Origin: an uncultured Methanosarcinales archaeon
GTDB taxonomy: Archaea > Nanobdellota > Nanobdellia > Woesearchaeales > WJKR01
Length of the DNA stretch: 64,000 bases
Assembly (NCBI GenBank): GCA_964556395.1
Contig: CAZKVR010000001.1
Span: 106,996-170,995 of the forward strand
Reading direction: 5' to 3'
Shown here piece after piece: positions 1,755 to 37,980 of the stretch (positions within the stretch are counted from its first letter, which is position 1; every line of letters starts with the position of its first letter). The position numbers and the translations under genes are program-made. The notes beneath the pieces are model-generated. The model made no database searches. It was given only the letters and a program-made list of their open reading frames with translations, and was not told where the DNA came from.

Positions 1755-1778
1755 ACTATATAGAAAATAAATTGTGTT
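1755..1778 (-). promoter_or_regulatory. Conserved promoter-like motif, copy A (CTATATAGAAAATAAATTGTGTT on the plus strand)
   Basis: The motif is near-identical to copies at 37959-37980 and 35202-35222. All three lie 40-140 nt upstream of minus-strand starts. Confidence 0.5.
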
Positions 1779-1808
1779 AAAAAAAAAGGGTTCAAAAAAG
1801 AACCCTTT
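1779..1808 (-). terminator. Intrinsic-type terminator (hairpin AAGGGTTC/GAACCCTT followed by a T-run on the minus strand)
   Basis: An 8-bp stem with a 6-nt loop is followed by about 9 T on the minus strand, directly 3' of gene 1897..2412. Confidence 0.6.
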
Positions 1809-1896
1809 GATGAGAAAAAGACTAAGAGCCTAAGCTGTCACGAAGCTCCTCGACCCAGCGTTTTCGCGCCTCGCAATCCTGAACTTCCGCGCGCCA

Positions 1897-2412
1897 CTAT
1901 TCCCGATGATACTCTATCTTTCTCGCCAGGTCATCCAACTCCATATAAAGAGCCCTCTCAGCAGATAATTTCTCAGGCTTGCTCTTCTCAAGACTTGCGA
2001 AATCACAATTTCCGATGGACTCTTTAAGCTGACGTATCATGTATTCTTTTACACCAACATGCTGTGGTGTGGGAGGAACCCAATCCTCGACTTTACCAAG
2101 CATGTCTTCATACTTCTTCTTGAGAACGCGCATCTCCTTCTCGCGACGTTCATAGTATTCGACCGCGTCATGATACGCCTTGTCATACTTCTCACCGCAA
2201 ACCCGTAACGCCTCCGCTACAGAGAGTCGAGAGAGTTCATCATATTCCTCTTTGGCCTCCTCCAAGCATTTCTCATGATGATCGGAAGGCACAAAGGATT
2301 GTTCGGAATCGAAAGATATGCCTCCCGTAAAAGGAGCGGCAATAGGAGCGCACCTCTTGACAAAATCCTCGAAAGACATTTCAGCAATTACAGAATCTAG
2401 ATTTGATGACAT
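1897..2412 (-). CDS. Hypothetical small acidic cytoplasmic protein
   Basis: The ORF appears monocistronic, with its own upstream AACACA/T-rich element and a downstream hairpin. Confidence 0.5.
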   Translation of the reverse strand: MSSNLDSVIAEMSFEDFVKRCAPIAAPFTGGISFDSEQSFVPSDHHEKCLEEAKEEYDELSRLSVAEALRVCGEKYDKAYHDAVEYYERREKEMRVLKKKYEDMLGKVEDWVPPTPQHVGVKEYMIRQLKESIGNCDFASLEKSKPEKLSAERALYMELDDLARKIEYHRE

Positions 2413-2459
2413 AATAAAAAAGTTTTGAGATTAAAAAAAAAATGTGTTAAAAGAAAAAA

Positions 2460-2478
2460 GCGCTCGCAAGAGGAGCGC
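2460..2478 (-). terminator. Hairpin GCGCTC-GCAAGAG-GAGCGC plus T-run (minus strand), 3' of gene 2485..3078
   Basis: A perfect 6-bp inverted repeat is followed by TTTTTTCTTTT on the minus strand. Confidence 0.5.
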
Positions 2479-2484
2479 GTTATT

Positions 2485-3078
2485 TCAGTCGCAGAAAGCG
2501 GCCGGGTCACCGTTCCGCAGGGCTTCCTCCCATGATTCCTGGCTGCTATGCACGTCTTCCCTATGGGATCTCATATCTTTCACCATCCGCTCTTGCCGCC
2601 GTTGGAAGGAATCGTATTCCTCTGCAGCCTCCTCGTATAATTCGCGGAATTTCCCTTCGTAGAAAGCCATGATTCCCTGATTCCTGGGATCCCTCTGGTG
2701 GTGGACGCTTTCTTCGATGAGGGCTTGTTCGACATGAGAGTTTATCATACGGGCTTGGTTCGCCCACTCCTCACCGTCAGCTCCTGCGCAGAGGTTGCTC
2801 TGAAGAGGCGGCCTCGTCCAGCAAAGCCTGAAGAGTTCCGCTTCACGACGGCCCTGCAAGCAGCACGCCGCCAAGACAAGGTAGTAGAGGATCGTCGAGA
2901 TATGAGGGTGTTCAAAACCACACCATACAGGGCCTCTCATCTCCCACGTCTTGTCGAAGATGTCCTTGATGGCGGTTTCGGACTCGGAGACATACCCTGC
3001 CAGCTGTTTCGCATAGTCATGCTCGCAGAACTGATCCAGGGGAATCTCAGTGACTAAAATATTATTATCATGTGCCAT
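2485..3078 (-). CDS. Hypothetical protein
   Basis: The ORF has no recognisable motifs. The start matches MAHDNN and lies downstream of a TATA-like TTTTCTATAATATTTTTT. Confidence 0.5.
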   Translation of the reverse strand: MAHDNNILVTEIPLDQFCEHDYAKQLAGYVSESETAIKDIFDKTWEMRGPVWCGFEHPHISTILYYLVLAACCLQGRREAELFRLCWTRPPLQSNLCAGADGEEWANQARMINSHVEQALIEESVHHQRDPRNQGIMAFYEGKFRELYEEAAEEYDSFQRRQERMVKDMRSHREDVHSSQESWEEALRNGDPAAFCD

Positions 3079-3162
3079 AAGCTATTTTTTAAGTGTTAAA
3101 AAATATTATAGAAAAGAAGCGCTCGCAAACAGGAGCACCTCTAGAAAAATAAGAGGACCTTA

Positions 3163-3699
3163 TCAGAGCTTCACCAGCAGCCGTTTCCCTTTGGCGAAAG
3201 GGATGGAGTGTATGTCCTCATGCTTCTCCTCACCTTCCAAGTAGGAGTAGGCCAACTCAACCTTCTCAGGGTCTATCCAGAAGAATGATTCAGTCCGTGT
3301 CTTCTGGTAGTTGTCAGGGTGCAAGACAAGCAGGCCACCATCTGCTCTTTCATCTGACTCTCCGAAGAAATAGAATCCAAAATCAAAGTGAGCGAGCACC
3401 AACGAGCAGAAAGGCAACCTAAAACCTCCAGCAGGATTGGTTTTTAGGATATCCTCCACTACAGGCATGCAAGGCGTATCCTCTGACAACCGGGTGGAGC
3501 CGCTCTCGCCGGAATCGAAAGGATCCGTAATCGCCATATCATACAATCGAGTCTTCTTATAAGGCCCATAATAGTCATAGCCCACGCACTCGGCGCGGTA
3601 GGACTCATAAAATCCTTCGTCGCGCTCGACGATGATTATCAGCTCTCTCCCTTCATGGAAGAGATCCTTCAATTGCTGTGCTTTTATCGATATAACCAT
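3163..3699 (-). CDS. Hypothetical protein
   Basis: The ORF is preceded on the minus strand by AACACATTTTTTTAAC about 33 nt upstream of the ATG. Confidence 0.5.
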   Translation of the reverse strand: MVISIKAQQLKDLFHEGRELIIIVERDEGFYESYRAECVGYDYYGPYKKTRLYDMAITDPFDSGESGSTRLSEDTPCMPVVEDILKTNPAGGFRLPFCSLVLAHFDFGFYFFGESDERADGGLLVLHPDNYQKTRTESFFWIDPEKVELAYSYLEGEEKHEDIHSIPFAKGKRLLVKL

Positions 3700-3746
3700 A
3701 ATTAATGAAATTTAAAGTTAAAAAAATGTGTTCTCACGAAGACAAG

Positions 3747-3769
3747 AAACGCTCATAAATGGAGCGTTT
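3747..3769 (-). terminator. Hairpin AAACGCTC-ATAAATG-GAGCGTTT
   Basis: An 8-bp perfect stem sits in the intergenic region 3' of gene 3873..4274. Confidence 0.4.
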
Positions 3770-3872
3770 CGTCAGGGTTTATCCCTTCCTTTTCGGGAAG
3801 AGTTTGTTTACGACGTGGTCCCGGAGCTGTATGTTTCTCGCGCTTGCCAGGTCGTTGGGGGCTTCGAGTTCT

Positions 3873-4274
3873 TTAGCCGGTGTCTCCTTCCTCCGAGTTC
3901 TCTTCCCGTAGTGCAGAGACGTACGTCCAGTACTCTTCGAGCGTCAGTTCATGGAGCAGCGCTTTCTCGAAGTAGCAGGCGCAGGCGTTCAGGTCTCCGA
4001 AGAACGACCTGAACACGGGCTCTTCAAAGCAGGCCTCATAATAGGCTAACCCTAAGTTTGGGCCGTAGTACATGGTCTCGCCATGGTCTGACACGGCCTT
4101 GTGCGCGAACGTTATCTTCCATTGCTCGGAAGCGTTACAGAAGATGCTGAGTTGTTCTCGCAAATCATCCTTTGTCCGGCAGTCGTGCGCGAACAAGGTC
4201 GAGAAGCAGGTGAAGAGGTGCCGGTCCTTCATCTCAGACAGGCACTGCGCTTGTGTCAATGAGTGATGTTGCAT
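3873..4274 (-). CDS. Hypothetical protein
   Basis: ORF only. Confidence 0.45.
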   Translation of the reverse strand: MQHHSLTQAQCLSEMKDRHLFTCFSTLFAHDCRTKDDLREQLSIFCNASEQWKITFAHKAVSDHGETMYYGPNLGLAYYEACFEEPVFRSFFGDLNACACYFEKALLHELTLEEYWTYVSALREENSEEGDTG

Positions 4275-4633
4275 AAAAAAAGATGGTGTTTTAAGGTTTT
4301 CAGAAAGCTTTTGACAAGTTCATGTATGTCATCCATTATTGAATTTTAAGGATAAGTATTGTCAATACCGCCGCCATCCCTGCGAGGTAGAGGAGCGGAA
4401 AGTGTTCCAGCCACAATTCCTGGAATGGTTCTGACTTCTTCAGGATTATCTGGATGTATCGTTTCATAATAAGAACATTTTTAGGGATTCATGAAAGAAT
4501 CCTGATAATTTGGGAATCTGATTTATCGGAGGAGAGGCGCCGCGTCCGCAGCGCTTCCCTTGAGAGTTGGTTCGGTCTTCACGTCTCTGTACAAGACTCG
4601 TTTTTTAGTTGTTTCACAATTTTTTTCAGATAT

Positions 4634-4885
4634 CTACGCGTGTGAACGTTCTACCGCGTGTTCTTGCTGAGGAACCAATTCTTTCCTGATACGCCGCAGC
4701 GCTTCCTTCTTGGTATCGATGGGGATTCCTTTGTCCTTGAGCAGACCTGCAACGGCGATTAGCTTGATGGTCACGCTTCCCGGACCCGCCATCTTCTCTT
4801 CCACTTCATCAGTGAGGCGGATGTCTTTTCCGGTTACGTCTTTTATGGTCTCTTCGATGTGTCGGGAGAAGTTTTTTTCTTTCAT
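4634..4885 (-). CDS. Small hypothetical protein (83 aa)
   Basis: ORF only. No confident family assignment. Confidence 0.4.
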   Translation of the reverse strand: MKEKNFSRHIEETIKDVTGKDIRLTDEVEEKMAGPGSVTIKLIAVAGLLKDKGIPIDTKKEALRRIRKELVPQQEHAVERSHA

Positions 4886-4980
4886 AATAATATTATTTTT
4901 TATGGTTAGAAGTGAAGAGGAAAAAGGGTTCCGATGAACCTTTTTCCTCTCTTAAGTTTTTATGATCTCTGCGCCTCCTG

Positions 4981-5655
4981 TTACCGATGATTTCTCCTGT
5001 TATCGATGATTTCGAAAGCCTGCAGGACACCTTTTTCGCACAACATGATGTTCTGACCCCAAGGACCCTTGCAGATATAGTGTTGTTCTTCATCCCGCTC
5101 GTTGGTTCCGATGAGGTATATCCTCGGCAGCCTTTCGAATAACGTGTCCTGGATGTCTTTATATGCCTTCAAGGACTCCTCATCACCTCTTGATAGGAGG
5201 TGTCTTATCATCTCGAGGCCGGCACTGACGGCATCGTCTATCCTGATGAAGATGTATCTGACGTCATCCATGTTCGTGGTGTATTCCTCGAAAACCCGTA
5301 ACGCTTGTTTTCCACCTCCTCTGAGGATGATTACGATGGGTTCCGTCCTGTCAGTGCCTTCTACAGGAAAATGGTTTTCGGCGTCCATCACTTTAAGTGA
5401 TAGTCTGAGTGCGTCCTCCGCGTTCATACTCCTGAAACACTTGTCAAGCTTTCCTTTCCGTAGCTTCTGCTTCTGCCTCCACGTGAGGGGAATATCCGAA
5501 ACGTCAGGAGTTAAAAGAACCTTGTCCAAGCATGGGGACACAGCATCGAGTCGCTTTTTAGTCTTGACGATTCTGACTGAGCCTGTGCGGCCCCTTCCAC
5601 GGTCGACGTGCCAGTCCGGCCGCTTATTCTTGTGGAAAAACATTTTTTTGCTCAT
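4981..5655 (-). CDS. Hypothetical protein with a Rossmann-like core (IVIILRGGGK...IDD), possibly SLOG/LOG-like
   Basis: A Gly-rich loop follows a hydrophobic beta-strand. The family assignment is tentative. Confidence 0.4.
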   Translation of the reverse strand: MSKKMFFHKNKRPDWHVDRGRGRTGSVRIVKTKKRLDAVSPCLDKVLLTPDVSDIPLTWRQKQKLRKGKLDKCFRSMNAEDALRLSLKVMDAENHFPVEGTDRTEPIVIILRGGGKQALRVFEEYTTNMDDVRYIFIRIDDAVSAGLEMIRHLLSRGDEESLKAYKDIQDTLFERLPRIYLIGTNERDEEQHYICKGPWGQNIMLCEKGVLQAFEIIDNRRNHR

Positions 5656-5836
5656 TCCTTAACGGTTTTTTATTTTTTGATTAATACTGAAATTTTTCGT
5701 GATATCTCAAGGACTCAACATCCTTGATGAGACGAGTTCCTACGATGTCTTGCAAAATACTTAGCAGCCAACCCTCGAGGGTCGCCGGTACGATGCCTTT
5801 GGGCAAGCGTTCGTTTCTCAGACATAACACATCGTC

Positions 5837-6133
5837 TCATAACGACCTTCGATATTCCTCCTCGAAGGCTTTGACCGCCTCTAAAGAGTCGGTGAACTCA
5901 TGGTCTCCATTACAGCTTCCGACGACGAACTCTTCAGGACCATTTATGGTGAGTGAGAGTTCGACATCGCCGTACTCGTTGTGGACACCGACCATCAAGG
6001 GATAGTCTTCTCTCTCTGGTTGCCCGTTGCTCCAGACGACCCTATGGTCCTTTTCCAGTTCTTCTAAGAACTGGATGATAGTGTTGACCGCGACCAGTGA
6101 TCGGTATAGCTTTTCATCAGTGTTATCATTCAT
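5837..6133 (-). CDS. Hypothetical protein (start adjusted to MNDNTDEKLY)
   Basis: ORF only. The internal Met gives a compact, soluble-looking protein. Confidence 0.4.
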   Translation of the reverse strand: MNDNTDEKLYRSLVAVNTIIQFLEELEKDHRVVWSNGQPEREDYPLMVGVHNEYGDVELSLTINGPEEFVVGSCNGDHEFTDSLEAVKAFEEEYRRSL

Positions 6134-6218
6134 ATCGATTTGTTTTTTTGTTTGAAAAAAAAGTGCAGGCGCTTTCCCCCAATATCCTCTGAAAAACGCC
6201 AAGAGAAGGCTCCCCACC

Positions 6219-7223
6219 CTAGAAGAGCATCGTCCCTAGGATGAAGAGGCACCACACGACGGCTGCGTAGAAGACTAACAGCGTAGCCAGTGGCGTGAAC
6301 AACACGTGCTTGTCAGGCTTGACGAAAGGGTATTGCGAGTATCGCCTCCTTTCCAAGGGCCTCAAGGTCTTGACGACCATCATGCCTCCGATGACGAGGG
6401 GTAGCAAGGACATCGAGAAGAGCATGTCATCACCGGCGCGGTAGAAAAGCATCCCTGCGGTGGAGACCGCTGTCAAGAACATCGTGAGAAGAACAACAAC
6501 CCATAAGGGAAGCCTCCTGAAAAGCACTGTTCGGATGCTGTTTGAACGCCCGAAAGAGTGTTCCCAACAGTTCGTCCTCCAGAGGAGGAAATCCTTAGCT
6601 ATCGTCTCCAGGACCTCATAGAGGTCTTCAGCGCTTTCGGTCGTGAAAGCCCAGTCACCTTCGACCTTCCCGTTGGCGTATCTCTGTATCGGGAATCGTG
6701 AGGGGGCCTTGTAACGCATGGAGAAGACTCCTTGCGAGTAATGCATCAGGATATTGAATCCTTGTATAGTCGAGATTGAGAACCAGTGTCCTGTCTGCTT
6801 CGGGACTGCCTTGTGAACCCCTCCTGCGAGTTTGAAACCTCCTTTAATCTTAAGCATGTCTTTGGCTCTTTCCGGAAGGTTGTATATCTCTAGGAATTGT
6901 CGGAAGAACACCGTTATCTTTTCAGGATTCTCCGAAGAGTACATTTTCTCGTCATCCTCGACGCCTTCCGCGCGGAGGAACGATTCCAATGGGAATGTGT
7001 CAGGCCACTTTTCGAAGAATACGTGGTACTCGCCGTAATCATACCCTGCTATAAGGGAGAATCCTCCTTCCAACATTATCCGGCGCCACTTGCGCTTGCT
7101 CCTGTCAAAGGGATTTGGGACTTTTTCTATCCCTATAATGGATATCCTTCCTTCCAAACCGTCGTTGATGGCTTGTTTGATGGTCTGATTTCTGGTTTTT
7201 TCTCTTTCTTCTTTCTTTGTCAT
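6219..7223 (-). CDS. Hypothetical membrane protein (C-terminal TM helices)
   Basis: Hydrophobic C-terminal segments are present. An AT-rich TATA-like sequence lies upstream. Confidence 0.5.
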   Translation of the reverse strand: MTKKEEREKTRNQTIKQAINDGLEGRISIIGIEKVPNPFDRSKRKWRRIMLEGGFSLIAGYDYGEYHVFFEKWPDTFPLESFLRAEGVEDDEKMYSSENPEKITVFFRQFLEIYNLPERAKDMLKIKGGFKLAGGVHKAVPKQTGHWFSISTIQGFNILMHYSQGVFSMRYKAPSRFPIQRYANGKVEGDWAFTTESAEDLYEVLETIAKDFLLWRTNCWEHSFGRSNSIRTVLFRRLPLWVVVLLTMFLTAVSTAGMLFYRAGDDMLFSMSLLPLVIGGMMVVKTLRPLERRRYSQYPFVKPDKHVLFTPLATLLVFYAAVVWCLFILGTMLF

Positions 7224-7240
7224 AATAAATTTTTTATTGT

Positions 7241-7990
7241 TTATGTATTAATGAGACTCTTTCGTCTACGGATGAGGATGAAGAAATATTTCAGGGCTTC
7301 TCTCCAATCCTCGTAGTGCATCCACGACTCTTCACTTTCGTCTGGGCCCTTGTCTTTCTCATCGTAGATGGAACAGATCTCATCGTGGATGGAGCAGTAG
7401 TGCGGGTGCATCCTGAACGTGGTCTCGTAGCGTCTTTCATCATAGATGTAGGCTTTCTGCGCCTTCAACAACACCATATTCAGAGGGTCTGCCACGGTCA
7501 TTCTCGTGTTCTCGTCAGCTAATTGCGCCAGAATCCTCGACCCACTCCTTATCTCTGGCGGGATGTGATGGTATGCGATCTCCACGTCCGTCCATGTGTA
7601 AGGCTTGTACAAGTATGGGTAGTAGAGATTGAACCCGTACTTGCGGACTGAACACCCAACCCGATGGGTGAAGCTCCTCAAGGCTTTGCGCGGATCCTTG
7701 AAGCTTTCTTTGAAGGGGAGTCCGATGCTCGAATCTTTGTCCGTAGCAGAACAAACCTCTATAGAGCTCTCGAACATGGTCAAGGAAGCCACCCTATGCG
7801 GGATTCCGCTGCAGGCGGAGTGGAGTGCCGCCCTGAGCAGCACACCCCACTTTCCAGTTCCTTTCCATTTCTTCAGCCATTCTGGCTGGACTTCATCCAT
7901 GTAGGACCAGACGTTGATACGCGGATCGTCCATGAGTGCTGCTCTGAAGAGCAACACGTCCTTGTCTTTGAATCTTTTTCTTTTGAACAT
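7241..7990 (-). CDS. Hypothetical protein (start at MFKRKRF)
   Basis: ORF only. Confidence 0.45.
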   Translation of the reverse strand: MFKRKRFKDKDVLLFRAALMDDPRINVWSYMDEVQPEWLKKWKGTGKWGVLLRAALHSACSGIPHRVASLTMFESSIEVCSATDKDSSIGLPFKESFKDPRKALRSFTHRVGCSVRKYGFNLYYPYLYKPYTWTDVEIAYHHIPPEIRSGSRILAQLADENTRMTVADPLNMVLLKAQKAYIYDERRYETTFRMHPHYCSIHDEICSIYDEKDKGPDESEESWMHYEDWREALKYFFILIRRRKSLINT

Positions 7991-8009
7991 AATAATAATT
8001 TTATTGTTT

Positions 8010-8804: not shown

Positions 8805-8842
8805 GGTAGTCTTATTTTTTTTCTACAACAGTTTTCAATCCC

Positions 8843-9091
8843 TCAGGACAATCCTAAGATGATCAGGAAGAGTAACAGCAGTACCGCTATTAAGAGCAAT
8901 CTCTTCGGTGCGAAAAGCCAAGCCAAGACTTGGATGAAGGAAGCTATGATGTACGCACCTACTAGGAGGATGAATTTTCCGAATGCGAGTAATATCATCA
9001 GGAAAAGTATTCCTATGATGATGTAAGGCACTATATGCTCCATAGTATCTATTTTTATGGTTATGAAAAAAAAAGAAGAAGGAACGGCCAA
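8843..9091 (-). CDS. Small membrane protein
   Basis: Two or three hydrophobic helices are present. Confidence 0.4.
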   Translation of the reverse strand: MAVPSSFFFITIKIDTMEHIVPYIIIGILFLMILLAFGKFILLVGAYIIASFIQVLAWLFAPKRLLLIAVLLLLFLIILGLS

Positions 9092-9106
9092 CGGCCGTCC
9101 TTGCTC

Positions 9107-9628: not shown

Positions 9629-9641
9629 AAGGATATTGTTT

Positions 9642-13834: not shown

Positions 13835-13844
13835 ATCGTTGTTG

Positions 13845-28640: not shown

Positions 28641-28642
28641 TC

Positions 28643-29246: not shown

Positions 29247-30308
29247 TCACTTAGTAGTGACGAAATCTACGCAGAACCTGTAGATGTGCGGCGCTTGCTG
29301 GCCGCACCGCACCGTCTCGCGGATGTCGCAGCCGACGCCGGCGGCCTCGCACGCCTCGCGGATCCAAGAATATGCGCTATCGACCTTGTCCTCGTGGAGA
29401 AAGGCGTAGAAATGTATCGTCGCCGTGTCGTTCGCAGCCTTCAAAGCCACGTCGAGGAAGGTCTCTGCCCCTTTGGGCAGGGGCATGAGGATGCGGTCGA
29501 AGCCGCCTTTCTCCGAGACCAGCGTCGGCACGACCTCTCGGGCGTCCCCGACGTGCGTCGTGGCGTTGGAGAGCTTGTTCCGCTGGATGTTCTTGAGGGC
29601 GAGCTCGTGGCCACGCGGGTTGATCTCCACCCCGACGACCTCCGACGCATCGGTGTTCTTGCCCAGGACGCAAGTGTAGGGTCCGCAGCCCGAGAACATG
29701 ACGAGCACCCGCTCGTCCGGCTTCACGAGTCCCATGATGCGTTTCCGCTCGGTCGACAGCCTCACGGAGAAGTAGACATCCTCGACATCGACCTCGAGCG
29801 TGACGCCGTTCTCCTTGTGGAGCGTCACCCGCTTGTCCTCGCCCGCCAGCAACCGCATCTTCTGCGTCCGGTACGTACCCTCATGACTGGCGTCCTTGGC
29901 CAGCGCCGTGGACACGCGAGGGTTGGTCTCGAGCAGAGTCGCACCTATAACCTTGTCGTATTGTTTCAGGTCCTCATCGACTTCCAGGATGGCGATGTCG
30001 CCCACCTGGTCGTACGCCGTCTTGAGCCTTTCCAGGACGTCCGAGGGCAGCTTGCCTTGCAGGGCTTCGCGGAGGCTCTTGGGCCGTTCCTGCTGTCCCG
30101 GCAGGTCGCGCTCCTCGAACTCATAGGACGTGTCGAACCGTTCCTTGACCGGCAGGTAGAGGTGGCCGTCCTCCTTGACCGCCTTGTAGCCCGGCAGGAA
30201 GAGCCCTCGTTCTACGAGGTCTTTCCGGGCCTGTTCTGCGTCCTTCAAAGGCACCTTGAGCGCGAGCATGGGCGTCGTGAGCCAACGGGCGTTTTTAAGG
30301 TTATCCAT
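29247..30308 (-). CDS. trm5: tRNA (guanine37-N1)-methyltransferase Trm5
   Basis: VYFSVRLSTERKRI, MFSGCGPYT and LMPLPKGAETFLDVAL align with M. jannaschii Trm5. The start is placed at MDNLKN. Confidence 0.9.
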   Translation of the reverse strand: MDNLKNARWLTTPMLALKVPLKDAEQARKDLVERGLFLPGYKAVKEDGHLYLPVKERFDTSYEFEERDLPGQQERPKSLREALQGKLPSDVLERLKTAYDQVGDIAILEVDEDLKQYDKVIGATLLETNPRVSTALAKDASHEGTYRTQKMRLLAGEDKRVTLHKENGVTLEVDVEDVYFSVRLSTERKRIMGLVKPDERVLVMFSGCGPYTCVLGKNTDASEVVGVEINPRGHELALKNIQRNKLSNATTHVGDAREVVPTLVSEKGGFDRILMPLPKGAETFLDVALKAANDTATIHFYAFLHEDKVDSAYSWIREACEAAGVGCDIRETVRCGQQAPHIYRFCVDFVTTK

Positions 30309-30349
30309 AATTAGTTTCAATAAAGAAAAGAAAAGAGTCTGAAAAATCA

Positions 30350-30500: not shown

Positions 30501-30737
30501 GTGATGAAGACTACAATCCAGCTCGACAAGCAGACCATCAGTCGCCTGCAGGAGCACAAGCTCTATCCGAGGGAGCCATACGACGCCATCGTCAACCGGC
30601 TCATTGACGAAGCAGAGGATGACGAAGAACTCACCCCTGATGAGATCAAGGATATCGAGGTTGCCCTGGAGCAGGTGAAGCAGGGTAAGACTATCAGAAT
30701 CGAGGACCTCGCGAAGGAGTTGGGTGTGAAGCTCTGA
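30501..30737 (+). CDS. RHH-type antitoxin (type II TA)
   Basis: An N-terminal beta-strand TTIQLDKQT is present. The stop overlaps the start of the RelE gene. Confidence 0.7.
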   Translation: MMKTTIQLDKQTISRLQEHKLYPREPYDAIVNRLIDEAEDDEELTPDEIKDIEVALEQVKQGKTIRIEDLAKELGVKL

Positions 30738-30988
30738 TGTACGCTCTCGAATTCTCGGATGAGGCCGCGAAGACTATCAGGAAACTACCCAGGAACGAGC
30801 GCGACCGCATCCTCAAGAAGATACAGAGCATCCGCGACTACCCCTTCGCGCATCTCAAGAAGCTGGAAGGCAATACGTTCTGGCGCCTCCATATCGGCAA
30901 GTACCGCGCCATCGTGGATGTCATCGTGTCCGGCAGGCGCATCATCGTCCTCAGGATCGGGAAGCGTGGCGATGTCTACGACCGCTGA
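30737..30988 (+). CDS. relE: RelE/ParE-family toxin
   Basis: The protein is about 83 aa and contains ...FWRLHIGKYRAIVDVI...RIGKRGDVY. Confidence 0.8.
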   Translation: MYALEFSDEAAKTIRKLPRNERDRILKKIQSIRDYPFAHLKKLEGNTFWRLHIGKYRAIVDVIVSGRRIIVLRIGKRGDVYDR

Positions 30989-31017
30989 GAACCCAACCTA
31001 CAAGAGCAGCAGCTCTT

Positions 31018-31917
31018 CTACACGACGACGAGCACGACACCCACGAGCATGACGCAGCACGCCATGAGCTTCAATCCCAGCCGGTGCTCGTGGAACAACC
31101 GACCCCCTATCAAGGAGGTGAAGAACGTCGACAAGCGCCTGACAGGGATTATGAGGCTGACCAGCGCTCCGGGAACACCCATGGCGAAGAGCAGAGCCAC
31201 GTCGGACATGAAGCTGGAGAATGTGCTGCTGAATATCTGCATCCCATCCTGCCTGATATCCCTGAGAATCTCGTTGAAGCCATGCTTGGCAGTCTCGAAC
31301 GCCACATAGTTGAAGCCCATGAAGAGCCTCACGAGGACGACGATAGTGAACACGTCGATACCCCAGTTCACCACAGCCTTCTGCATAGTGACTGTAAAGC
31401 TGAAGATGAGCATGGCGAATATCATGTACAGGGCGTACCGCGACCTCGCCAGGATTCTGAACGGCGACCAGATGCCATTGTACCGGCCAGCCGTAGCCAT
31501 CTGGAGAAGGTATGTCCCCATGACGAGGAGGAACACGCCGATGATAGCGAGGGCGTCGGGCGACTCTCCCAGCAGGACGAACGCTATGACGAGGAGGAAT
31601 AACGGACTGATATTCATCAACGGCATGCAACTGGACAGTTCGGAGTGACGCAGGCTCCTCAAATAGTAGAGGTTGCCGGCCGCGAGGATGATACTGATCA
31701 CGTACAACGCTACGAAGACGCGCCAGTCGTATGCTAGGTTGATGAACGGCAGGACGAATATGAGCAACAAGAGGTATATCCCTTGGGACGCGCCGTATTC
31801 GAGGGCGTGCTCGTGCTGGAGCACTTTCTTCCCGACGATGCTTGCCATGGCGTGGAAGACGGCCGATGCGAATGCGTAGGCTACCCAGAGCATGAGCCCT
31901 TCACCGCAACCATTCAT
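31018..31917 (-). CDS. EamA/DMT-family transporter
   Basis: Ten TM helices are predicted. An EamA-like motif SPLFLLVIAFVLLGESP is present. Confidence 0.7.
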   Translation of the reverse strand: MNGCGEGLMLWVAYAFASAVFHAMASIVGKKVLQHEHALEYGASQGIYLLLLIFVLPFINLAYDWRVFVALYVISIILAAGNLYYLRSLRHSELSSCMPLMNISPLFLLVIAFVLLGESPDALAIIGVFLLVMGTYLLQMATAGRYNGIWSPFRILARSRYALYMIFAMLIFSFTVTMQKAVVNWGIDVFTIVVLVRLFMGFNYVAFETAKHGFNEILRDIRQDGMQIFSSTFSSFMSDVALLFAMGVPGALVSLIIPVRRLSTFFTSLIGGRLFHEHRLGLKLMACCVMLVGVVLVVV

Positions 31918-31959
31918 TTATAAACGTTACTGTCACTCCAGATAATGACAGGATGCCGC

Positions 31960-31978
31960 GAGAACGCCTGCTGCTCGA
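31960..31978. repeat. 19-bp direct repeat copy 2. Includes the palindrome CTGCTCGAGCAG
   Basis: See copy 1. Confidence 0.8.
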
Positions 31979-31991
31979 GCAGAAGCCCTTT

Positions 31992-33023
31992 TCAGAAATA
32001 ATCGCCGAGTCCTTTCTGGGCTCGTTCCTGGCCGTGCTTGGCGAGCTGCTCCACCGTTTTCTGGACGCGTTCGGGCGAGAAGTCGTGGCGTTCCACCAGG
32101 ATCTCGTGCAGCGCGTCGCCATCCACCCCTTTCCATTGCAGGTCGTACTCGTCCGTGACTGGCATCTGCTTGAACAGGGCGAAGGCTTCCTGCCATGAGG
32201 ATTGGAACTCTTCTCGCCAGTTGACGTCTGCGAACACCTTGCCGACGTCTTCCTGGGCTTTGACGAGCTTGAGGCCTTTCTTCGGCCCTATCCCTTTGAT
32301 GCCGCCGACGTTGAAGTCCGTGCCTATCAGCAATCCTAGGGCTATGAGCTGGTCCCTTGTGATCTCTAGCTTCTGCAGCACGTCCTGGAGTGTTATGAGT
32401 TCGGGCTTGATGCCTTCGGTGGCGTAGGCGCCTTTCTTCTTGCGCCGGGCGGTGATGCTGAGGTTCTTCACCATCCGCGGGGTTCCGAACAGGAGGCAGT
32501 CGTAGTCTTGGCTGATGAGCGCCCACGCGTCGCCCTTGTAGACCATGTGGGCTGCTTGTGCCTCTCCTTCAGAGGGTGCTTGGATGGTCGGGATGCCTAA
32601 TGCTGTGAGGAGCTCTTTCGCCTCGTCCACCATGTCTCTCGTCAGCCTCGAGGTGCGGCCGGCGTATTTCTTCATGCCTTCTACATCCTCGGCTTCCTTG
32701 GCGGCGTCGTATGATGCTTGGGCGTCCTGCTTGAGCTTCTGCCGCCGCTCCTGCTCTTTCCGTTTGAGCTCTGGGGCTTTGCCGTCGAAGACGAAGACGA
32801 GCCTGAGGCCTTCTCGCATGAGTTTGGTGGTCCTTGAGAAGAGGCCTACGAGGTGGCTGGTGACGTTGCCGTGCTTGTCCGAGAGCGGCGCGCCGTCCGG
32901 GCCTCGGATGGTGGTGAGGAACTGGTAGAGGACGTTGTACGCGTCGACGACGAAGGTCTTGCCTGACAGGTCTGCCAGGCTGACCGGTTCTCCTTTGACG
33001 AGTTCTGAGAGCGAGACGCCCAT
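31992..33023 (-). CDS. fen1: Flap endonuclease 1
   Basis: The N-terminus is MGVSLSELV...VDAYNVLYQFLTTIR. A PCNA-interacting C-terminus is present. Confidence 0.95.
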   Translation of the reverse strand: MGVSLSELVKGEPVSLADLSGKTFVVDAYNVLYQFLTTIRGPDGAPLSDKHGNVTSHLVGLFSRTTKLMREGLRLVFVFDGKAPELKRKEQERRQKLKQDAQASYDAAKEAEDVEGMKKYAGRTSRLTRDMVDEAKELLTALGIPTIQAPSEGEAQAAHMVYKGDAWALISQDYDCLLFGTPRMVKNLSITARRKKKGAYATEGIKPELITLQDVLQKLEITRDQLIALGLLIGTDFNVGGIKGIGPKKGLKLVKAQEDVGKVFADVNWREEFQSSWQEAFALFKQMPVTDEYDLQWKGVDGDALHEILVERHDFSPERVQKTVEQLAKHGQERAQKGLGDYF

Positions 33024-33149
33024 GGCGGTGGTGAGAATATGGTTCTTCTTAAGGGTTTGGATGGTGGTTCTCTAGAAAACCAGTTGAATATTAAAAAAAC
33101 CAATTGGTTTCCAAAAAGTTTATATAGTTTCGAACGAAACCAAAAGAAT

Positions 33150-33722
33150 ATGGAAGGAGTCAATAAGGAAAGCTATGAAGAAGAGGACGCTTATACGAAG
33201 GTGTTGTACTGGTTCTTCGCCCACCCCACCATTGAAGTCAGCCTCAACGACCTCGTCGAGGCGGTGAACATCTCCAAGACCTCGGCGAACAAGGCCGTGC
33301 ACAGGCTCGTGGATGAAGGATTCCTTCGCCTCAAGCAGCTGGGACGGCTGTGGCGCATCACTTGTAACCAAGAGCACGAGTACAACATCACCAGGAAAGT
33401 CCCGTTCAACCTCCAGACAGTCTACCAGGCAGGCATCCTCGAAGAGATTCGCAAGCGCATCCCGAACCCCCGCGCAGTCGTGCTCTTCGGCAGTTATCGC
33501 AAGGGCGACGACACGGAGGAGAGCGACATCGACATCGCAGTGGAAGTGATGGATGACAAGGATTACAGGATAGTGGAATTAGGGGTCCTCACGACCTTAG
33601 GTTTCCGCGAGCACGTGCCCGTCAACCTGCACGTATTCTCACGCAACCATGTGGACCTCAACCTGTTCGCCAACATCGCCAACGGCATCGTCCTTGAAGG
33701 GTTCCTGGAGGTGCGACCATGA
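33150..33722 (+). CDS. MNT-type nucleotidyltransferase with N-terminal wHTH (antitoxin of a HEPN/MNT pair)
   Basis: The GS...DxD motif reads VVLFGSYRKGDDTEESDIDIAV. A TATA box TTTATATAG lies 24 nt upstream of the ATG. Confidence 0.75.
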   Translation: MEGVNKESYEEEDAYTKVLYWFFAHPTIEVSLNDLVEAVNISKTSANKAVHRLVDEGFLRLKQLGRLWRITCNQEHEYNITRKVPFNLQTVYQAGILEEIRKRIPNPRAVVLFGSYRKGDDTEESDIDIAVEVMDDKDYRIVELGVLTTLGFREHVPVNLHVFSRNHVDLNLFANIANGIVLEGFLEVRP

Positions 33723-34105
33723 GGAGGAAACGTCCCGATATCAAGAACGCCGACAGCCTGCTGGAGGCCAGCAAGAACACCCTGAGGTTCACCATGAAGC
33801 TGGAGGTGTCGGAGGAGTCGGCCGACACTATCATCAGGAACGTGCACGAGGCGTTCCGGATGCTCGGCGAGGCATTGCTTCTCAAGCAAGGAGGGGTCGC
33901 CGTCGATCACACCCAGCCGATCGAGGCCCTCATCCGCACGAACGTCCAAACAGAGAGGCCCTTGTCGGTGTTGACGACCATCAGGAAGACGAGGCATTCC
34001 ATCAATTACTACGGCTACCGGCCGACGGTGGCGGAAGCGCGGGATGCGGTGTCTGTGGCCGAGGCTTGTTTCGACAAGCTGGCAGAACATGTCAAGAGCC
34101 TATAG
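33719..34105 (+). CDS. HEPN-domain protein (putative toxin partner)
   Basis: The protein is all-alpha and about 128 aa. It contains an RKTRHSINY Rx(n)H-like motif and overlaps MNT by 4 nt. Confidence 0.55.
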   Translation: MRRKRPDIKNADSLLEASKNTLRFTMKLEVSEESADTIIRNVHEAFRMLGEALLLKQGGVAVDHTQPIEALIRTNVQTERPLSVLTTIRKTRHSINYYGYRPTVAEARDAVSVAEACFDKLAEHVKSL

Positions 34106-35148
34106 CTGTACCAACAATAATCCTTTGAATTCGTGGTTGAGCTTCTCCTTCGCTTTCTTCGTCACGTCGCCTGTCGTGAGGTAGATGACCGGTAGCTTCT
34201 TCATCTGTCCTTGGACGTACGCGTTGGAGAGGTCGCCGTCGTTGCTCTTCTTCTTGTTCTTCGCCTTGCAGAAATAGGTGACGCGACCGACGGCTGTCGG
34301 TACTGAGATCTCGAATTCGATGTCCGAGTTCTTGCGCTGGACCTCTTTGGCGATGACCTGGATTCGCTTCTCGGCGAAGTATTCCAGGACTTGTTTGAGG
34401 AAGTCGTCGCCGGTGTCGTCCTGTTGCTTGAGGAGTGTCTTTGCGGGCACCGCTTCGGGCGTTCCGGAGGGTTCTTCCGACCCACTCTCTTCTTGCATCT
34501 CAGGCTCTGCTGCTTTTGTATGCTCGTGTTTCACGGCTTCTGACTGTTCTTGCGTTGCTGGTTTCGGGGCTTGTCTCGTGGATTTTTGTGGCGCTTGCTC
34601 AGGAGATTGCCGGGCGTCTTGCGAGGGTTCTGTCGGTGACGCTTCCTTGGACTGTTCTTCCTGGATTGGTGCTGGTTGTTCTGCTGGCTTGGTCTGCTTG
34701 GGCGTGATGCCTAATGCCTGTTTGATGAGCGGCTCCGCCTCTTTCGTCTGGAGCTGGTACCATTTCCAGAACAGGACGGTGCCGTCTTTCGTCTTGACTT
34801 CCAGTGGTACGGCGAAGTCTTTGACCTGTCGGAGGCTGACCCTGGCGAGGGGTTCTTGCTCGTCGTCTTTGAGTATCTGTTTCTGCTTGAGGAGTTCTGC
34901 CGTCCGCCTGTCCTTCTCGCCGAGGTATTGTATGAGTTTGGTCAGCTTGTCGGCGTGTTCCGGGATGTAGTAGAAAGGCCCTCCGCGTTTGGTGTTGCTC
35001 ACCTTGACCTTCCCTGCGCCTTTGAGCTCTGACAGGACGGCGCCGATGGTGAACGAGTCGCCTTCGCCGAGGGCTTTCCTGATGTGGAGGGGTTGGCACG
35101 GGCCTTTCTGTCGGAGGACTTGCAGGACGGCGTCTCTGTTGAGCATGT
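34100..35148 (-). CDS. wHTH + PD-(D/E)xK nuclease-like protein with a low-complexity linker
   Basis: The start is placed at MLNRDAVLQVLRQKG. The C-terminus has a SDIEFEISV...CKAK restriction-endonuclease-like motif. Confidence 0.5.
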
Positions 35149-35201
35149 TTTCTTCGAGGTGTCGGTGATTTATAATCCTGTTGCTTGCCACATAGATAAT
35201 T

Positions 35202-35222
35202 TCTATAGTGAAAATAATCTGT
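35202..35222 (-). promoter_or_regulatory. Conserved promoter-like motif, copy C (TCTATAGTGAAAATAATCTGT on the plus strand)
   Basis: It lies about 55 nt upstream of minus-strand gene 34100..35148, in the divergent region shared with the sigma-factor gene. Confidence 0.45.
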
Positions 35223-35263
35223 AAAACAAAAATAGTCTTATAGTACACTACTATCGCGTCAAT

Positions 35264-35851
35264 ATGGCAGGAGACAGGCTCATCCACGAGGAATTCATAC
35301 AGGCCAAGACAGACCCCCTCATGAGAGAGGCAGTGATGGGCAAGGTGTGGACGAAAGCATACCACATCGCGTCGAGATACACCCGCTCATCAGCAGAGGC
35401 GGAGGACATCGCCCAGGAAGCCTCGTTGAATGTCCACAAGAACTTCCACGTCTACGGCAGCAAGAGGCAGAACAACCCATACGCATGGGTGCACACCATC
35501 ACCACGAACATCTGCGTAAATCACTACCGGAGGCGGCCGAAAACCCCCATCATAAGCCTCGACGAGGAGGAAAGGGCAGAGGGCCATACCAGGATGAAGA
35601 GGGATGTCCCGGACGAGCGCAACAACATCGAGGACTACCTCAACCTCAAGGAGTGCGAGGAGGTGTTGGCCAGCCTGCCTGAAAAGAAAGGGAAGGCCTA
35701 CCTGTTGTCCTATCTCGAAGGATACAAGTACGACGAGATCGCAGCGATCACCAAGGAGCGGATGGGCACCGTGAAAAGCAGCATCCATAGGATGAGAGAA
35801 CGGGCGAAAGAGCTGTTCCAGGAACGCGCTCCCGTCTACATCAGGAAGTGA
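35264..35851 (+). CDS. ECF-type RNA polymerase sigma-70 factor (regions 2 and 4)
   Basis: Region 2 reads AEDIAQEASLNVHKNF...YAWVHTITTNICVNHYRRRP. Region 4 reads LPEKKGKAYLLSYLEGYKYDEIAAITKERMGTVKSSIHRMRERAKEL. Confidence 0.8.
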   Translation: MAGDRLIHEEFIQAKTDPLMREAVMGKVWTKAYHIASRYTRSSAEAEDIAQEASLNVHKNFHVYGSKRQNNPYAWVHTITTNICVNHYRRRPKTPIISLDEEERAEGHTRMKRDVPDERNNIEDYLNLKECEEVLASLPEKKGKAYLLSYLEGYKYDEIAAITKERMGTVKSSIHRMRERAKELFQERAPVYIRK

Positions 35852-35856
35852 ACCAC

Positions 35857-36564
35857 ATGCAGGCAGTCATCATCAGCGGAGGGTTGGGGACGCGGTTGAA
35901 GCCCCTGACAGATACCATTCCGAAAGGCCTCGTCGAAGTGCAGGGGCGGCCGTTGTTGGAGCACGTCCTCGACCTGCTCAAGGAAGCCGGTGTGGACGAC
36001 GTCATCATTTCCATCGGCTATCTCGGCGATAGGATAAAAGAGCATTTCCAGGACGGGAACAGCCATGGCGTCCGCATCAGGTACGTGGAGGAGGATAAGC
36101 CCCTAGGGACGGGTGGCTGGCTCCACAAAGCAAGAGGGATGCTGTCAGGCGATTTCCTCGTCGTCAACGGCGACAACCTCTTCGCCTTGGACCTCCACGA
36201 GATGCTGCGGTTCCACCGGGAGCGGGGAGCGACGGCGACGATAGGCCTCACCAGGGTGAGCGACCCGTCGTCGTTCGGCATCGCTGCGATGGACGGCGAC
36301 CGTATCGCGAGGTTCGTGGAGAAGCCTTCGCGAGAAGACGCTCCTTCTGACTTGGCGAACGGCGGCTACTACGTCTTCAACGAATCGGTTTTCGGCATGA
36401 TACCGTCGCGAGAGCGTTTCATGCTCGAGCAGGACGTCTTCCCAGCACTTGCGGGAAAAGGTAGGTTGTTCGGCTTCCCCTCAGGTGCGCAGTGGTTCGA
36501 CACCGGCACGTTCGAACGCCTCCAAGAAGTGGAATCCTTCTGGCGGAAAGGCAGCAACGTTTAA
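35857..36564 (+). CDS. Sugar-phosphate nucleotidyltransferase
   Basis: The N-terminus is MQAVIISGGLGTRLKPLT. A GTGGW motif is present. Confidence 0.8.
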   Translation: MQAVIISGGLGTRLKPLTDTIPKGLVEVQGRPLLEHVLDLLKEAGVDDVIISIGYLGDRIKEHFQDGNSHGVRIRYVEEDKPLGTGGWLHKARGMLSGDFLVVNGDNLFALDLHEMLRFHRERGATATIGLTRVSDPSSFGIAAMDGDRIARFVEKPSREDAPSDLANGGYYVFNESVFGMIPSRERFMLEQDVFPALAGKGRLFGFPSGAQWFDTGTFERLQEVESFWRKGSNV

Positions 36565-36594
36565 AAAGGGAAGGGTGTTGGGTTTCCTCAAGCC

Positions 36595-37275
36595 ATGATA
36601 CAGCAACGACACGTTGACGAGTGCAAGCGACAGCTCATAAGGGCGGGCTGGGCGTGTGACATCGACAACACCGTCTCCGCCACGGCTGAAGCGTTCTTCG
36701 ACCGCATGGATGGGCTGTTCCCCCGCCCTGAAGGGGATGAGGGCCTCTCCGTGAGTGAGCTCGTGCGGAAATATGTGAGCGATGACCAAGTACCGACTTG
36801 GCAGACACCTGAGGCCCGTGCCGCCAGCAAGGCTATCATCTCAGACCCCGAGTTCTATCGGGAACTGCCTCCCATAGCGGGTTCTGATACGGTCTTGAGG
36901 AGGTTCACGGAAGCCTTGCCTTTCACGTGTTTCATCACCGCCCGTCCTAATGTGGTGGCTGATGAGACGAGGGCTTGGCTGGAGAGCCGCTTCCCCACCC
37001 TGCCGCTCATCACCAAGCCTGACAGCGTGGATCCTTCTCGGAACAATGAGTGGAAGGCTCGGCTGCTGGAAGCGTTGTATCCGCAGGTGCGAGGTATCGT
37101 CGACGACGATCCGCGCCTGGTAGAGCATCTCTCGCCTGGTTATGGGGGGACGGTCATCATCTTCGGCGCGTCAAGTGTGGAGCACGATCACGTCGAGGCT
37201 TATGCTTGCTTGACGTGGAAGGATGTGGAGAGGAAGCTGGAGGAGCTGGCGAGTCTCAAGGCCGCATCCATTTGA
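36595..37275 (+). CDS. HAD-superfamily hydrolase
   Basis: A DxDxT motif (CDIDNTV) and a downstream DDD motif are present. Confidence 0.55.
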   Translation: MIQQRHVDECKRQLIRAGWACDIDNTVSATAEAFFDRMDGLFPRPEGDEGLSVSELVRKYVSDDQVPTWQTPEARAASKAIISDPEFYRELPPIAGSDTVLRRFTEALPFTCFITARPNVVADETRAWLESRFPTLPLITKPDSVDPSRNNEWKARLLEALYPQVRGIVDDDPRLVEHLSPGYGGTVIIFGASSVEHDHVEAYACLTWKDVERKLEELASLKAASI

Positions 37276-37909
37276 TCTCCCAGTACGACACGTCGCCTTC
37301 GTCGTCGACGACGCCGATGAGCAGCCTTTTCTTCGTCGAGTGGGCCACGCGGTTCTTGGCTGCGAACTCGTACCATGTCAGCGTCGAGCCTTCGTGGACG
37401 GGGTAGACAACCCATCTTGCGTGGTCTTCGCCTGGCTTGACGCCGCGGTCGTACACGCGGAAGTCGGCTCCGAACTTCAGGGCTGTCTTGACGATGTAGC
37501 CTCTGTTCCTGAGGTCTTTGAAGACGGAGTAGCGTATCCAGAACTGCGGTTCGATGCGTTTGGCCTTGCGGAGGAATTGCTGGAAGTCGAGGGTCTTGCC
37601 GTGGTAGTCTTTCACGTGGAGGCGTCCTTTCTCGAGGAGGTAGAGGGCTTCGTGGAGGCTGAGCTGGACCTTGCCGTCTTCCAGCATGACGCCGTAGCGG
37701 CTCTGCGCGTAGAGGTCTCGCGCCGCGTCGGTGTTCTCGGTGATGACTCGTTCCTTGGCGAAGATGGCGTTGACCTTGACCTTCTTGCGGCCGTTGCTCA
37801 CGGCTTTGGGGATGATGCCTTTGAAGTCTTCCTCGTGGTTGAGCGGGTCTTCGAAGGTGAACTCGTCCTCGTGGAGGTGGATGCCGCTCTCGTCCTTCTT
37901 CTTGGCCAT
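37256..37909 (-). CDS. endA: tRNA-splicing endonuclease
   Basis: The protein carries GADFRVY, HARWVV and AHSTKKRLLIGVVDD. Confidence 0.85.
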   Translation of the reverse strand: MAKKKDESGIHLHEDEFTFEDPLNHEEDFKGIIPKAVSNGRKKVKVNAIFAKERVITENTDAARDLYAQSRYGVMLEDGKVQLSLHEALYLLEKGRLHVKDYHGKTLDFQQFLRKAKRIEPQFWIRYSVFKDLRNRGYIVKTALKFGADFRVYDRGVKPGEDHARWVVYPVHEGSTLTWYEFAAKNRVAHSTKKRLLIGVVDDEGDVSYWEIKWMRP

Positions 37910-37958
37910 GGCTGTGGAGAGGAGAGGGTGCTTTATAAATATTTGGCAGAATATATTA

Positions 37959-37980
37959 CTATATAGAAAATAATTTGTGT
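37959..37980 (-). promoter_or_regulatory. Conserved promoter-like motif, copy B (CTATATAGAAAATAATTTGTGT on the plus strand)
   Basis: It lies about 45 nt upstream of the endA ATG. It matches copy A at 21 of 22 positions. Confidence 0.5.

Follow-up and report, generated by a model that had tools for sequence, protein, structure and literature searches.

What are the near-identical AT-rich sequences that precede three unrelated genes in the genome of an uncultured Woesearchaeales archaeon? A reading made from the letters alone (the sequence-only reading) had noticed them in a 64,000-nucleotide stretch of contig CAZKVR010000001.1 (assembly GCA_964556395.1, forward-strand positions 106,996 to 170,995; below, the window), upstream of a patatin, a winged helix-turn-helix (wHTH) nuclease and EndA, and had proposed either a strong promoter with a regulator-binding site or a small repeated element. 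We find that the three copies are instances of a 22-bp palindrome with the consensus TTATTTTC-N-ATAT-N'-GAAAATAA, built from two inverted ATTTTC half-sites whose centres lie about 11 bp (one helical turn) apart. The element is real, conserved and of a familiar kind, and apparently undescribed; our literature search, by words and by sequence strings, found no prior description. Judging from the sequence, we think it probable that the palindrome, conserved in the Woesearchaeales, serves as docking site for a DNA-binding protein that is sequence-specific and probably dimeric, and that acts on neighbouring promoters and possibly at the replication origin (oriC). It is unusual for such an element to be found both at particular promoters and in the middle of a putative origin.

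A 22-bp palindrome in intergenic DNA

The near-identity of the first two copies is real: A (1756-1777, plus strand) and B (37959-37980) differ at one position in 22 and match CTATATAGAAAATAATTTGTGT with one and zero mismatches, respectively. The start of A had been given as 1755, one base too early. The similarity is also above background, as had been claimed, with no other match to CTATATAGAAAATAATTTGTGT at up to three mismatches in the window and none in 100 dinucleotide shuffles. Copy C (35202-35222), described as related, aligns without gaps on CTATA-NN-GAAAATAA-NN-TGT, and this three-copy pattern does not occur in the shuffles. Read in gene direction, the copies have AATTATTTTC-(TATATA/ACTATA)-G.AA in common. 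Relatives show the full form of the element, with perfect palindromes (TTTTCTATATAGAAAA, TTTTCAATATTGAAAA, TTTTCCATATGGAAAA) and TTA/TAA flanks. Dyad symmetry goes beyond what had been noticed before, as do five more copies in the window (sites D to H below) and the position of C, which serves a divergent gene pair.

Motif counts were made on the window plus 83 loci (numbered with the prefix L; 1.40 Mb in total), using a symmetrised 22-nt position weight matrix (PWM) as motif model. As null models we used dinucleotide shuffles, same-composition palindromes and an everted/swapped half-site control. The EndA homologues and the 80 loci retrieved with them all belong to metagenome-assembled genomes (MAGs) of Woesearchaeota/Nanoarchaeia, and part of the window recurs without a difference in a Logan contig from SRR11308339. 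The 1.40 Mb hold 12 exact copies of TTTTCNATATNGAAAA and 16 with one mismatch, versus 0-1 and 0-9 for eight palindromic controls of the same composition. At 16 bits or more, the PWM finds 45 matches, compared with 1.7 in dinucleotide shuffles and 1 for the everted/swapped-halves control; everted and direct half-site arrangements are not enriched. In the window, eight matches reach 19 bits or more, all of them intergenic, while the next best scores 13.4 bits. These sites and the promoter elements and flanks beside them are:

1629-1635, minus strand: TATA box TTAAAAA of the patatin gene, starting 29 nt before the ATG at 1606
1749-1770, no strand: site A, TTATTAACTATATAGAAAATAA, PWM score 30.5 bits; distal half consensus, proximal half degenerate
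1771-1808, minus strand: ACACAA flank, T9 and terminator-like hairpin (1808-1785) of the ORFan gene 1897-2412
30311-30332, no strand: site H, TTAGTTTCAATAAAGAAAAGAA, 25.0 bits
35169-35176, minus strand: TATA box ATTATAAA of gene 34100-35146, starting 30 nt before its ATG
35196-35217, no strand: site C, ATAATTTCTATAGTGAAAATAA, 26.0 bits
35238-35243, plus strand: TATA-like TTATAG of the sigma-like gene 35264-35851, 26 nt before its ATG
37932-37939, minus strand: EndA TATA box TTTATAAA, starting 30 nt before the ATG at 37909
37952-37973, no strand: site B, TATATTACTATATAGAAAATAA, upstream of EndA, 25.9 bits; orthologous EndA sites in many genomes
37974-38009, minus strand: ACACAA flank, T8 and terminator-like hairpin (38009-37986) of the ORFan gene 38022-38996
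41388-41409, no strand: site D, ATAAATTCTATATAGAAATTAA, 20.8 bits, holding the perfect 12-mer palindrome TTCTATATAGAA
53614-53635: site E, TTATTTTCAGTATAGAATTTAA, 22.5 bits, between aMBF1 (53074-53550, minus) and a wHTH-nucleotidyltransferase gene (53718, plus)
61714-61735: site F, TTATTTTCAATAAAGAAAAATA, 31.0 bits, upstream of an HhH-GPD glycosylase gene (61830, plus; Pfam)
61774-61795, no strand: site G, TTAATTTCCATAAAGAAACAAT, 19.4 bits, a second copy 60 nt after F

A low-complexity AT-rich word might recur by chance, the motif being 90% A/T and intergenic DNA AT-rich. However, the shuffles and same-composition controls yield about 0-2 occurrences against the 45 observed, and shuffling confined to the AT-rich islands of the window (500 shuffles) gives 0.03 expected against seven observed, so the motif is not a by-product of AT-rich spacers. 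Together with its conservation at orthologous positions (below), these results refute chance, to which we give virtually no credence. The hundreds of random-like copies without positional bias that the sequence-only reading would have taken as the mark of a spurious motif are clearly not what is seen: nearly every strong site is intergenic, in sampled DNA that is 89% coding. This status comes from crude open reading frame (ORF) calls, from which the few coding flags in GC-rich loci stem.

The density of sites differs between relatives, with about one per 7-8 kb in the GC-rich clade (the window, L002, L003 and L006) and far fewer outside the EndA locus in AT-rich relatives. Two loci carry iteron-like tandem arrays of perfect palindromes: L115 (309-396, three copies with a 33-nt period) and L141 (1123-1170, two and a half copies with a 26-nt period).

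Conservation and placement at promoters

All three original copies lie upstream of minus-strand genes, as had been stated, with 153.5 nt from motif centre to ATG for the patatin (770-1606), 60.5 nt for a 348-aa protein (34100-35146) and 53.5 nt for EndA (37256-37909). Pfam matches (Patatin and tRNA_int_endo) bear out the first and last names; the label of wHTH nuclease given to the 348-aa protein holds at the level of fold, in an AlphaFold model, but not of sequence, with no Pfam, NCBIfam or PDB sequence match. Site C sits centrally in a 117-nt region between the 348-aa gene (minus) and a divergent gene for a protein like sigma factors of the extracytoplasmic function (ECF) type (plus), 60.5 and 57.5 nt from their ATGs, and is kept in L005, L002, L003, L006 and L074. 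Site H likewise lies between divergent genes, Trm5 (minus, Pfam; ATG read at 30269, TATA TTAAAAA at 30298-30292) and a DUF7557/ParE pair (plus, 30504). Site D precedes a gene for a 190-aa coiled-coil protein (41451, plus) with the TATA box TTTAAAC at 41423-41429, 28 nt before the ATG, and site G is followed by TTTTAAAC (61800-61807), a TATA box starting 30 nt before the ATG.

The element is kept upstream of EndA orthologues in genomes of 29-54% GC. Where EndA is divergent from RNase Z, one palindrome lies midway between the two TATA boxes across genomes, and an alignment of nine such spacers shows only three conserved islands: the palindrome and, on either side of it, the TATA boxes of RNase Z and EndA. 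The palindrome letters C, ATAT and G.AA are invariant in this alignment. Altogether 22 of 47 divergent RNase Z/EndA pairs have the motif, with bimodal scores (15 or more versus 5 or less), and the median spacer is 117.5 nt with it (minimum 105 nt) versus 88 nt without.

The motif is specific to some genes, as seen from its frequency upstream of orthologues:

EndA: at least 13 of 82 (an undercount)
Orc1/Cdc6: 3 of 8
348-aa gene: 5 of 68
Trm5: 3 of 32, with L002 and L006 among the carriers
FEN1: 0 of 63
Hjc: 0 of 44
PAN: 0 of 23
EamA: 0 of 19

Its absence upstream of the last four shows that it does not belong to promoters in general. Among the single targets are GatD, TFE-alpha, aMBF1, a TrmB-like regulator, the HhH-GPD glycosylase, the wHTH-nucleotidyltransferase and the patatin. 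We also scanned JGI metagenome contigs for the exact 22-mer, with the motif as the sole criterion, and at least 120 stretches matched. The first 80 of these loci hold 83 copies, of which crude ORF calls placed 62 between genes, and EndA adjoined five of the sites there; among the matches listed, RNase Z was within 400 nt of the palindrome in 7 of 120 loci, and a Woesearchaeota-only protein of about 100 aa was near it in four.

Both for EndA across genomes and for the motif-bearing genes of the window, the ATG is preceded by a canonical TATA box (TTTATAAA, TTTTTAAA or TTTAAAC) whose start lies 26-33 nt away, in most cases 30 nt. From what is generally known of archaeal promoters, this is the layout expected for leaderless mRNAs, and the motif-bearing genes are apparently leaderless. 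Distances to the ATG measured from the palindrome centre are 45-78 nt (mode 57), which puts the centre 15-32 nt upstream of the TATA start, often with genes on both sides at about equal distance. The sequence-only reading had suggested that the TATATA core is the TATA box of the promoter, and we had at first read it so ourselves; lying further upstream than the proximal box, it is not, and the conserved box about 30 nt from the ATG led us to drop the idea. Each gene has its own canonical TFB recognition element (BRE) and TATA box.

Might the element instead, close to the strong-promoter idea of the sequence-only reading, be a further core promoter, possibly bidirectional, with TBP on (T/A)ATAT(A/T), a TFB variant on TTTTC/GAAAA and transcription beginning about 25 nt away in both directions? 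Most copies do have a TATA-like core (TATATA, AATATT, AATAAA); in L120 the palindrome lies 36 nt before a Shine-Dalgarno-preceded ATG, where a TATA box would be expected; and site A is followed by a TATA-like sequence of its own, CTATAAAC, far from the patatin ATG. We nevertheless consider a core promoter improbable. The separate BRE/TATA conserved before nearly every ATG would then fall within the 5' untranslated region. The core is not fixed, and positions N and N' are C or G in about 18% of cases and CATATG cores occur, both of which make poor TBP sites; conservation is instead highest at the C and G that flank it. On either strand the core is preceded by TTTTC and followed by GAAAA, a T-rich upstream flank that is the opposite of the purine-rich BRE of archaeal core promoters. 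The absence of the element from the FEN1, Hjc and PAN promoters also speaks against this explanation.

The orc1 loci and possible binding proteins

Does the element act only at promoters? Among the metagenome matches listed, orc1/cdc6 starts within 400 nt of the palindrome in 12 of 120 perfect-copy loci, which is the strongest association that perfect copies have with any one gene. Here the palindrome lies in AT-rich DNA between dyads such as TTTCCAAAGGAAA, TTTCCACTAGAAA and TTTCCGATGGAAA, which resemble origin recognition boxes (ORBs) in fitting the ORB/mini-ORB core TTCC...GAA (PMC1904270), and which we identified by pattern only. These ORB-like dyads are about 15-fold above the background rate and, measured from the palindrome centre, cluster at -48 to -64, +48 to +58 and +106 to +130, with a density of 2.03 per 400 nt at orc1-adjacent palindromes versus 0.53 at others. 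With the palindrome at its midpoint, the arrangement looks like the geometry of archaeal origins, in which ORBs flank a DNA unwinding element, and would mark a putative replication origin. In several loci a TrmB-like gene is the divergent neighbour of orc1 across this putative origin. Some repair and replication genes are also linked to the motif (the radA operon, the HhH-GPD glycosylase and GyrA-like, RFC and primase-like genes).

The closest known parallel is the ucm of Sulfolobales, an 11-bp motif midway between ORB2 and ORB3 to which UBP binds, a nucleoid-associated protein that recognises a specific sequence and has 329 sites, most of them intergenic, with no simple relation to transcription (PMC12141716). 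In both cases, a specific motif lies in an AT-rich stretch between inverted ORBs beside orc1 and recurs at intergenic sites; here the palindrome is about 50-60 bp from the ORB-like dyads on each side and recurs at promoters. By analogy with crenarchaeal ucm/UBP, the palindrome thus probably also acts in the replication origin. However, UBP binds as a monomer to the non-palindromic ucm (ATTATACAAA), is known from structures (PDB 9EFD/9EFE/9EFF) and has been reported only in Sulfolobales and Desulfurococcales (PMC12141716), whereas the element here is a palindrome of 22 bp with other letters, its assignment to an origin follows from sequence pattern only and its binder is presumably another protein. 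No UBP-like protein was identified here, although no UBP sequence search was made.

This parallel raises the alternative that the element is primarily an origin or nucleoid element, a counterpart of ucm whose binder acts on MCM or chromatin, with promoter copies that have no direct role in transcription. The orc1 association, the position midway between ORB-like dyads and the similarly loose relation of the UBP sites to transcription (PMC12141716) would all agree with this. Yet the tight placement between the paired TATA boxes of RNase Z and EndA and the 105-nt minimum spacer point to a promoter-linked constraint, the gene specificity holds across genomes of 29-54% GC, and both the letters and the known range of UBP set ucm apart (PMC12141716). 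On balance, we regard the alternative as unlikely, if less so than a core promoter.

The half-site also recalls the damage-response element of Sulfolobales, 5'-A(N)TTTC-3', which is bound by Orc1-2 upstream of the BRE/TATA, activates transcription and in the upsX promoter is exactly ATTTTC (PMC5817253, PMC6061795). ATTTTC fits this pattern, although five specified bases are easily matched by chance; the binder there is an Orc1/Cdc6 paralogue, and the motif here is tied to orc1 loci. The Orc1-2 element is, however, a single non-palindromic hexamer at -44 to -39 that abuts the BRE (PMC5817253, PMC6061795), whereas here the hexamer forms an inverted pair with its coding-strand copy at about -66 to -61 from the ATG, so that the Orc1-2 element is about 22 bp nearer the transcription start site (TSS). 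Nor are the main targets here (EndA, RNase Z, Trm5) damage-response genes. The motif is found mainly with EndA and RNase Z, and also with orc1 loci, the region upstream of the radA operon and the glycosylase gene. The element therefore resembles both the ucm/UBP and the Orc1-2 systems and is a member of neither.

ORBs and mini-ORBs (e.g. TTCCAGTGGAACT) are similar in their dyad symmetry, T-rich and A-rich arms and presence at orc1-adjacent origins, and a minority CATATG variant of the palindrome (TTTCCATATGGAAA) formally fits TTTCC-N4-GGAAA. The consensus nevertheless differs (TTTTC-N6-GAAAA versus TTCC-N3-4-GGAA), canonical ORB-like dyads coexist separately about 50 bp away, and most palindromes are at promoters. 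Archaeal activators can also bind upstream activating sequences (UASs) between divergent promoters, as with the GvpE UAS of haloarchaeal gvpA/gvpD and the Ptr2 sites. These likewise lie just upstream of the BRE, and a central site can serve two back-to-back core promoters, but the sequences, organisms and protein families are unrelated.

We thus return to the docking site as our favoured explanation, which upholds the regulator-site idea of the sequence-only reading: the element is non-random, lies upstream of genes and is best read as the site of a DNA-binding regulator. A dimeric protein would recognise the two inverted ATTTTC half-sites, one helical turn apart. The 22-mer ends a few bp short of the BRE, and a protein bound there could influence TBP/TFB recruitment at one or two core promoters; where the palindrome lies between two outward-facing core promoters, one bound protein could serve both. 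Such a position is better suited to an upstream activating or architectural site than to a repressor site that occludes the TATA box or TSS. At oriC, the protein would sit between ORB-bound initiators.

Several observations weigh against the docking site. In the GC-rich clade, the gene-distal half-site is exact in 8 of 13 cases and the gene-proximal one in 0 of 13, a degeneracy that seems odd for a symmetric homodimer. The spacing between motif centre and TATA start (15-32 nt) lacks strict helical phasing. Some copies are distant from their start codons: 153 nt for site A, 105 nt for site F, 110-330 nt for the orc1 sites and 140-270 nt for those of the small protein and radA. The L120 copy could overlap or be a TATA box. 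The targets are functionally mixed (tRNA processing, replication, repair, transcription factors, patatin, toxin-antitoxin), and the catalogue is biased, as its loci were mostly sampled around EndA.

Which protein might bind? A dedicated factor not yet recognised has, in our rough estimate, an even chance. An Orc1/Cdc6-family protein is a possible but clearly weaker candidate; the orc1-adjacent TrmB-like protein is a doubtful one, and all others together are no better placed. By analogy, a tentative extension is that the element is the counterpart of ucm in a broader sense, with one protein (possibly of the Orc1/Cdc6 family, given the ATTTTC half-site) binding both the origin centre and about 10 to more than 100 promoters per genome. 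If this minority view holds, DPANN archaea with reduced genomes would couple the activity of their origin to the expression of genes for tRNA processing, replication and repair. To our knowledge, almost nothing is known of gene regulation or replication origins in DPANN archaea, as no such Woesearchaeota are in pure culture. An order-wide 22-bp element with positional rules offers a bait for its binder, a marker of orc1-adjacent origins and a means of defining regulons in MAGs. It also bears on whether lineages beyond Sulfolobales have an origin factor like UBP, the existence of ucm/UBP analogues in other archaeal lineages having been posed as a question in 2025 (PMC12141716). Should the binder be an Orc1/Cdc6 paralogue, the theme of the initiator as transcription factor would extend beyond the Crenarchaeota.

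Low-GC blocks, RNA searches and neighbouring genes

Two stretches of the window, 1897-26000 and 38022-41080, have about 47% GC, compared with 55-58% elsewhere, and nearly all their ORFs are on the minus strand. None of the 24 ORFs tested matched a Pfam family, apart from sub-threshold matches; several have signal-peptide-like N-termini, and a repeat family (D1) corresponds to their 5' ends. These low-GC blocks may be foreign insertions, and none of the eight palindromes lies inside them. Site A borders the first block, and B and D bracket the second. The hairpin and T-run reported directly before A (1808-1785, minus) and B (38009-37986, minus) are indeed there, and we found that the two hairpins (1785-1808 and 37986-38009) follow a common frame (AAAGGnnnn, a 6-nt loop, nnnnCCTTT, T-run, (A)ACAC) with different stem letters, extending the similarity of A and B to about 55 nt of architecture. 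A T-run and ACA(C/T) often precede the sites of the GC-rich clade, making A, B and the EndA site of L006 near-identical over about 30 nt.

One might take the palindrome for the footprint of a mobile element, whether att site, integration target or terminus of a miniature inverted-repeat transposable element (MITE), linked to the two blocks. The borders and the shared hairpin frame of A and B would be its traces. However, the element is present at orthologous EndA, Trm5 and 348-aa-gene promoters in genomes without these blocks. The right end of the first block has no copy, leaving A without a partner; no empty site was found, and two other contigs with the 41451 gene carry the same block (no homologue of this gene was found in the sampled loci). 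Among 2.9 million viral contigs there were seven exact matches, all on contigs of 120-222 kb. We consider a mobile footprint very unlikely, and the earlier proposal of a small repeated element finds no support in this mobile sense: the palindrome is kept at orthologous promoters of distant genomes while its flanks have diverged.

The ORFan genes at 1897-3699 are each followed by a GC-rich hairpin and T-run (2420-2480, 3090-3145, 3715-3770), and the next ORFan gene is preceded by AACAC(A/T), T7-10 and AA at about -38 to -22, a promoter-like arrangement unlike that of the backbone genes. The sequence-only reading had connected the palindrome with an AACACA and T-tract element before the four small genes at 1897-4274. 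This is weakly true, as AACAC(A/T) then T7-10 precedes three of them; the order is opposite to that at A and B (T-run then ACACAA), and the palindrome is absent.

Neither Rfam (at the gathering threshold) nor ARAGORN found RNA genes in the window, so the motif is not part of a known RNA gene; in the relatives, Rfam found one tRNA-Arg only, in L002. In three loci, a palindrome and TATA box 1-2 kb upstream of EndA are followed by gene-free DNA (L002 7730-8100, L003 8975-9315, L006 8125-8450) with conserved blocks (ACGCTTG, GGTGGACCAA.ACC, CGAAAAACC, TAGCGTG.GCT), ending at a T-run in L003. No Rfam match was found there in L002 or L003 at E-values up to 1, and the DNA is a candidate for a non-coding RNA of about 300 nt under the motif. 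Downstream of site A (1607-1712, minus), a structured RNA was not evident (fold z = -1.0), and in a BLASTN comparison with the gene-free regions of the relatives, the motif itself was the only shared sequence.

The protein of about 100 aa that recurs near the palindrome belongs to a Woesearchaeota-only family with 295 homologues and no Pfam family (L206 3774-4340; also L145, L102, L086 and L120). It lies directly upstream of radA in all three loci found by protein search, with a palindrome upstream in one of the two with DNA. Its structural model (four strands and a helix, pLDDT 81) had no PDB match below E = 0.06 and no UBP entry among the best 50 PDB matches. It would be as likely a target as the binder. 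In the radA-linked upstream region, the palindrome is followed by repeats of the word CACTGGACACTGG(A/T)C, then by a TATATAAAC box and finally by a conserved leader, about 110 nt long, that ends in a GGAGGTG Shine-Dalgarno sequence. Given this leader and Shine-Dalgarno sequence, the operon is not leaderless, and it may have RNA or protein control of its own.

The 348-aa protein (34100-35146, minus) belongs to a family of 674 Woesearchaeota hypothetical proteins and is syntenic with EndA in 68 of 82 loci. Its AlphaFold model (pLDDT 83.5) has two N-terminal winged helices of MarR/RPC34 type, a disordered linker and a C-terminal PD-(D/E)xK-like domain that matches the restriction-endonuclease folds of MspJI, AspBHI and AF1548. 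As an autoregulated binder of the palindrome, this tandem winged-helix protein is unlikely in general, with the motif at only 5 of 68 orthologues. The divergent ECF-type gene that shares site C with it (35264-35851, plus) encodes Sigma70_r2 and r4_2 domains, in an archaeon; it is present in the 97%-identity relative L005 and absent at that position in L002.

The window also has three toxin-antitoxin-like pairs, at 30504-31052 (DUF7557/ParE), 33039-34105 and 53718-54954. The latter two each combine a wHTH-nucleotidyltransferase (MntA-like) with a small partner, HEPN-like in one case. Two of the three pairs adjoin palindromes, namely sites H and E.

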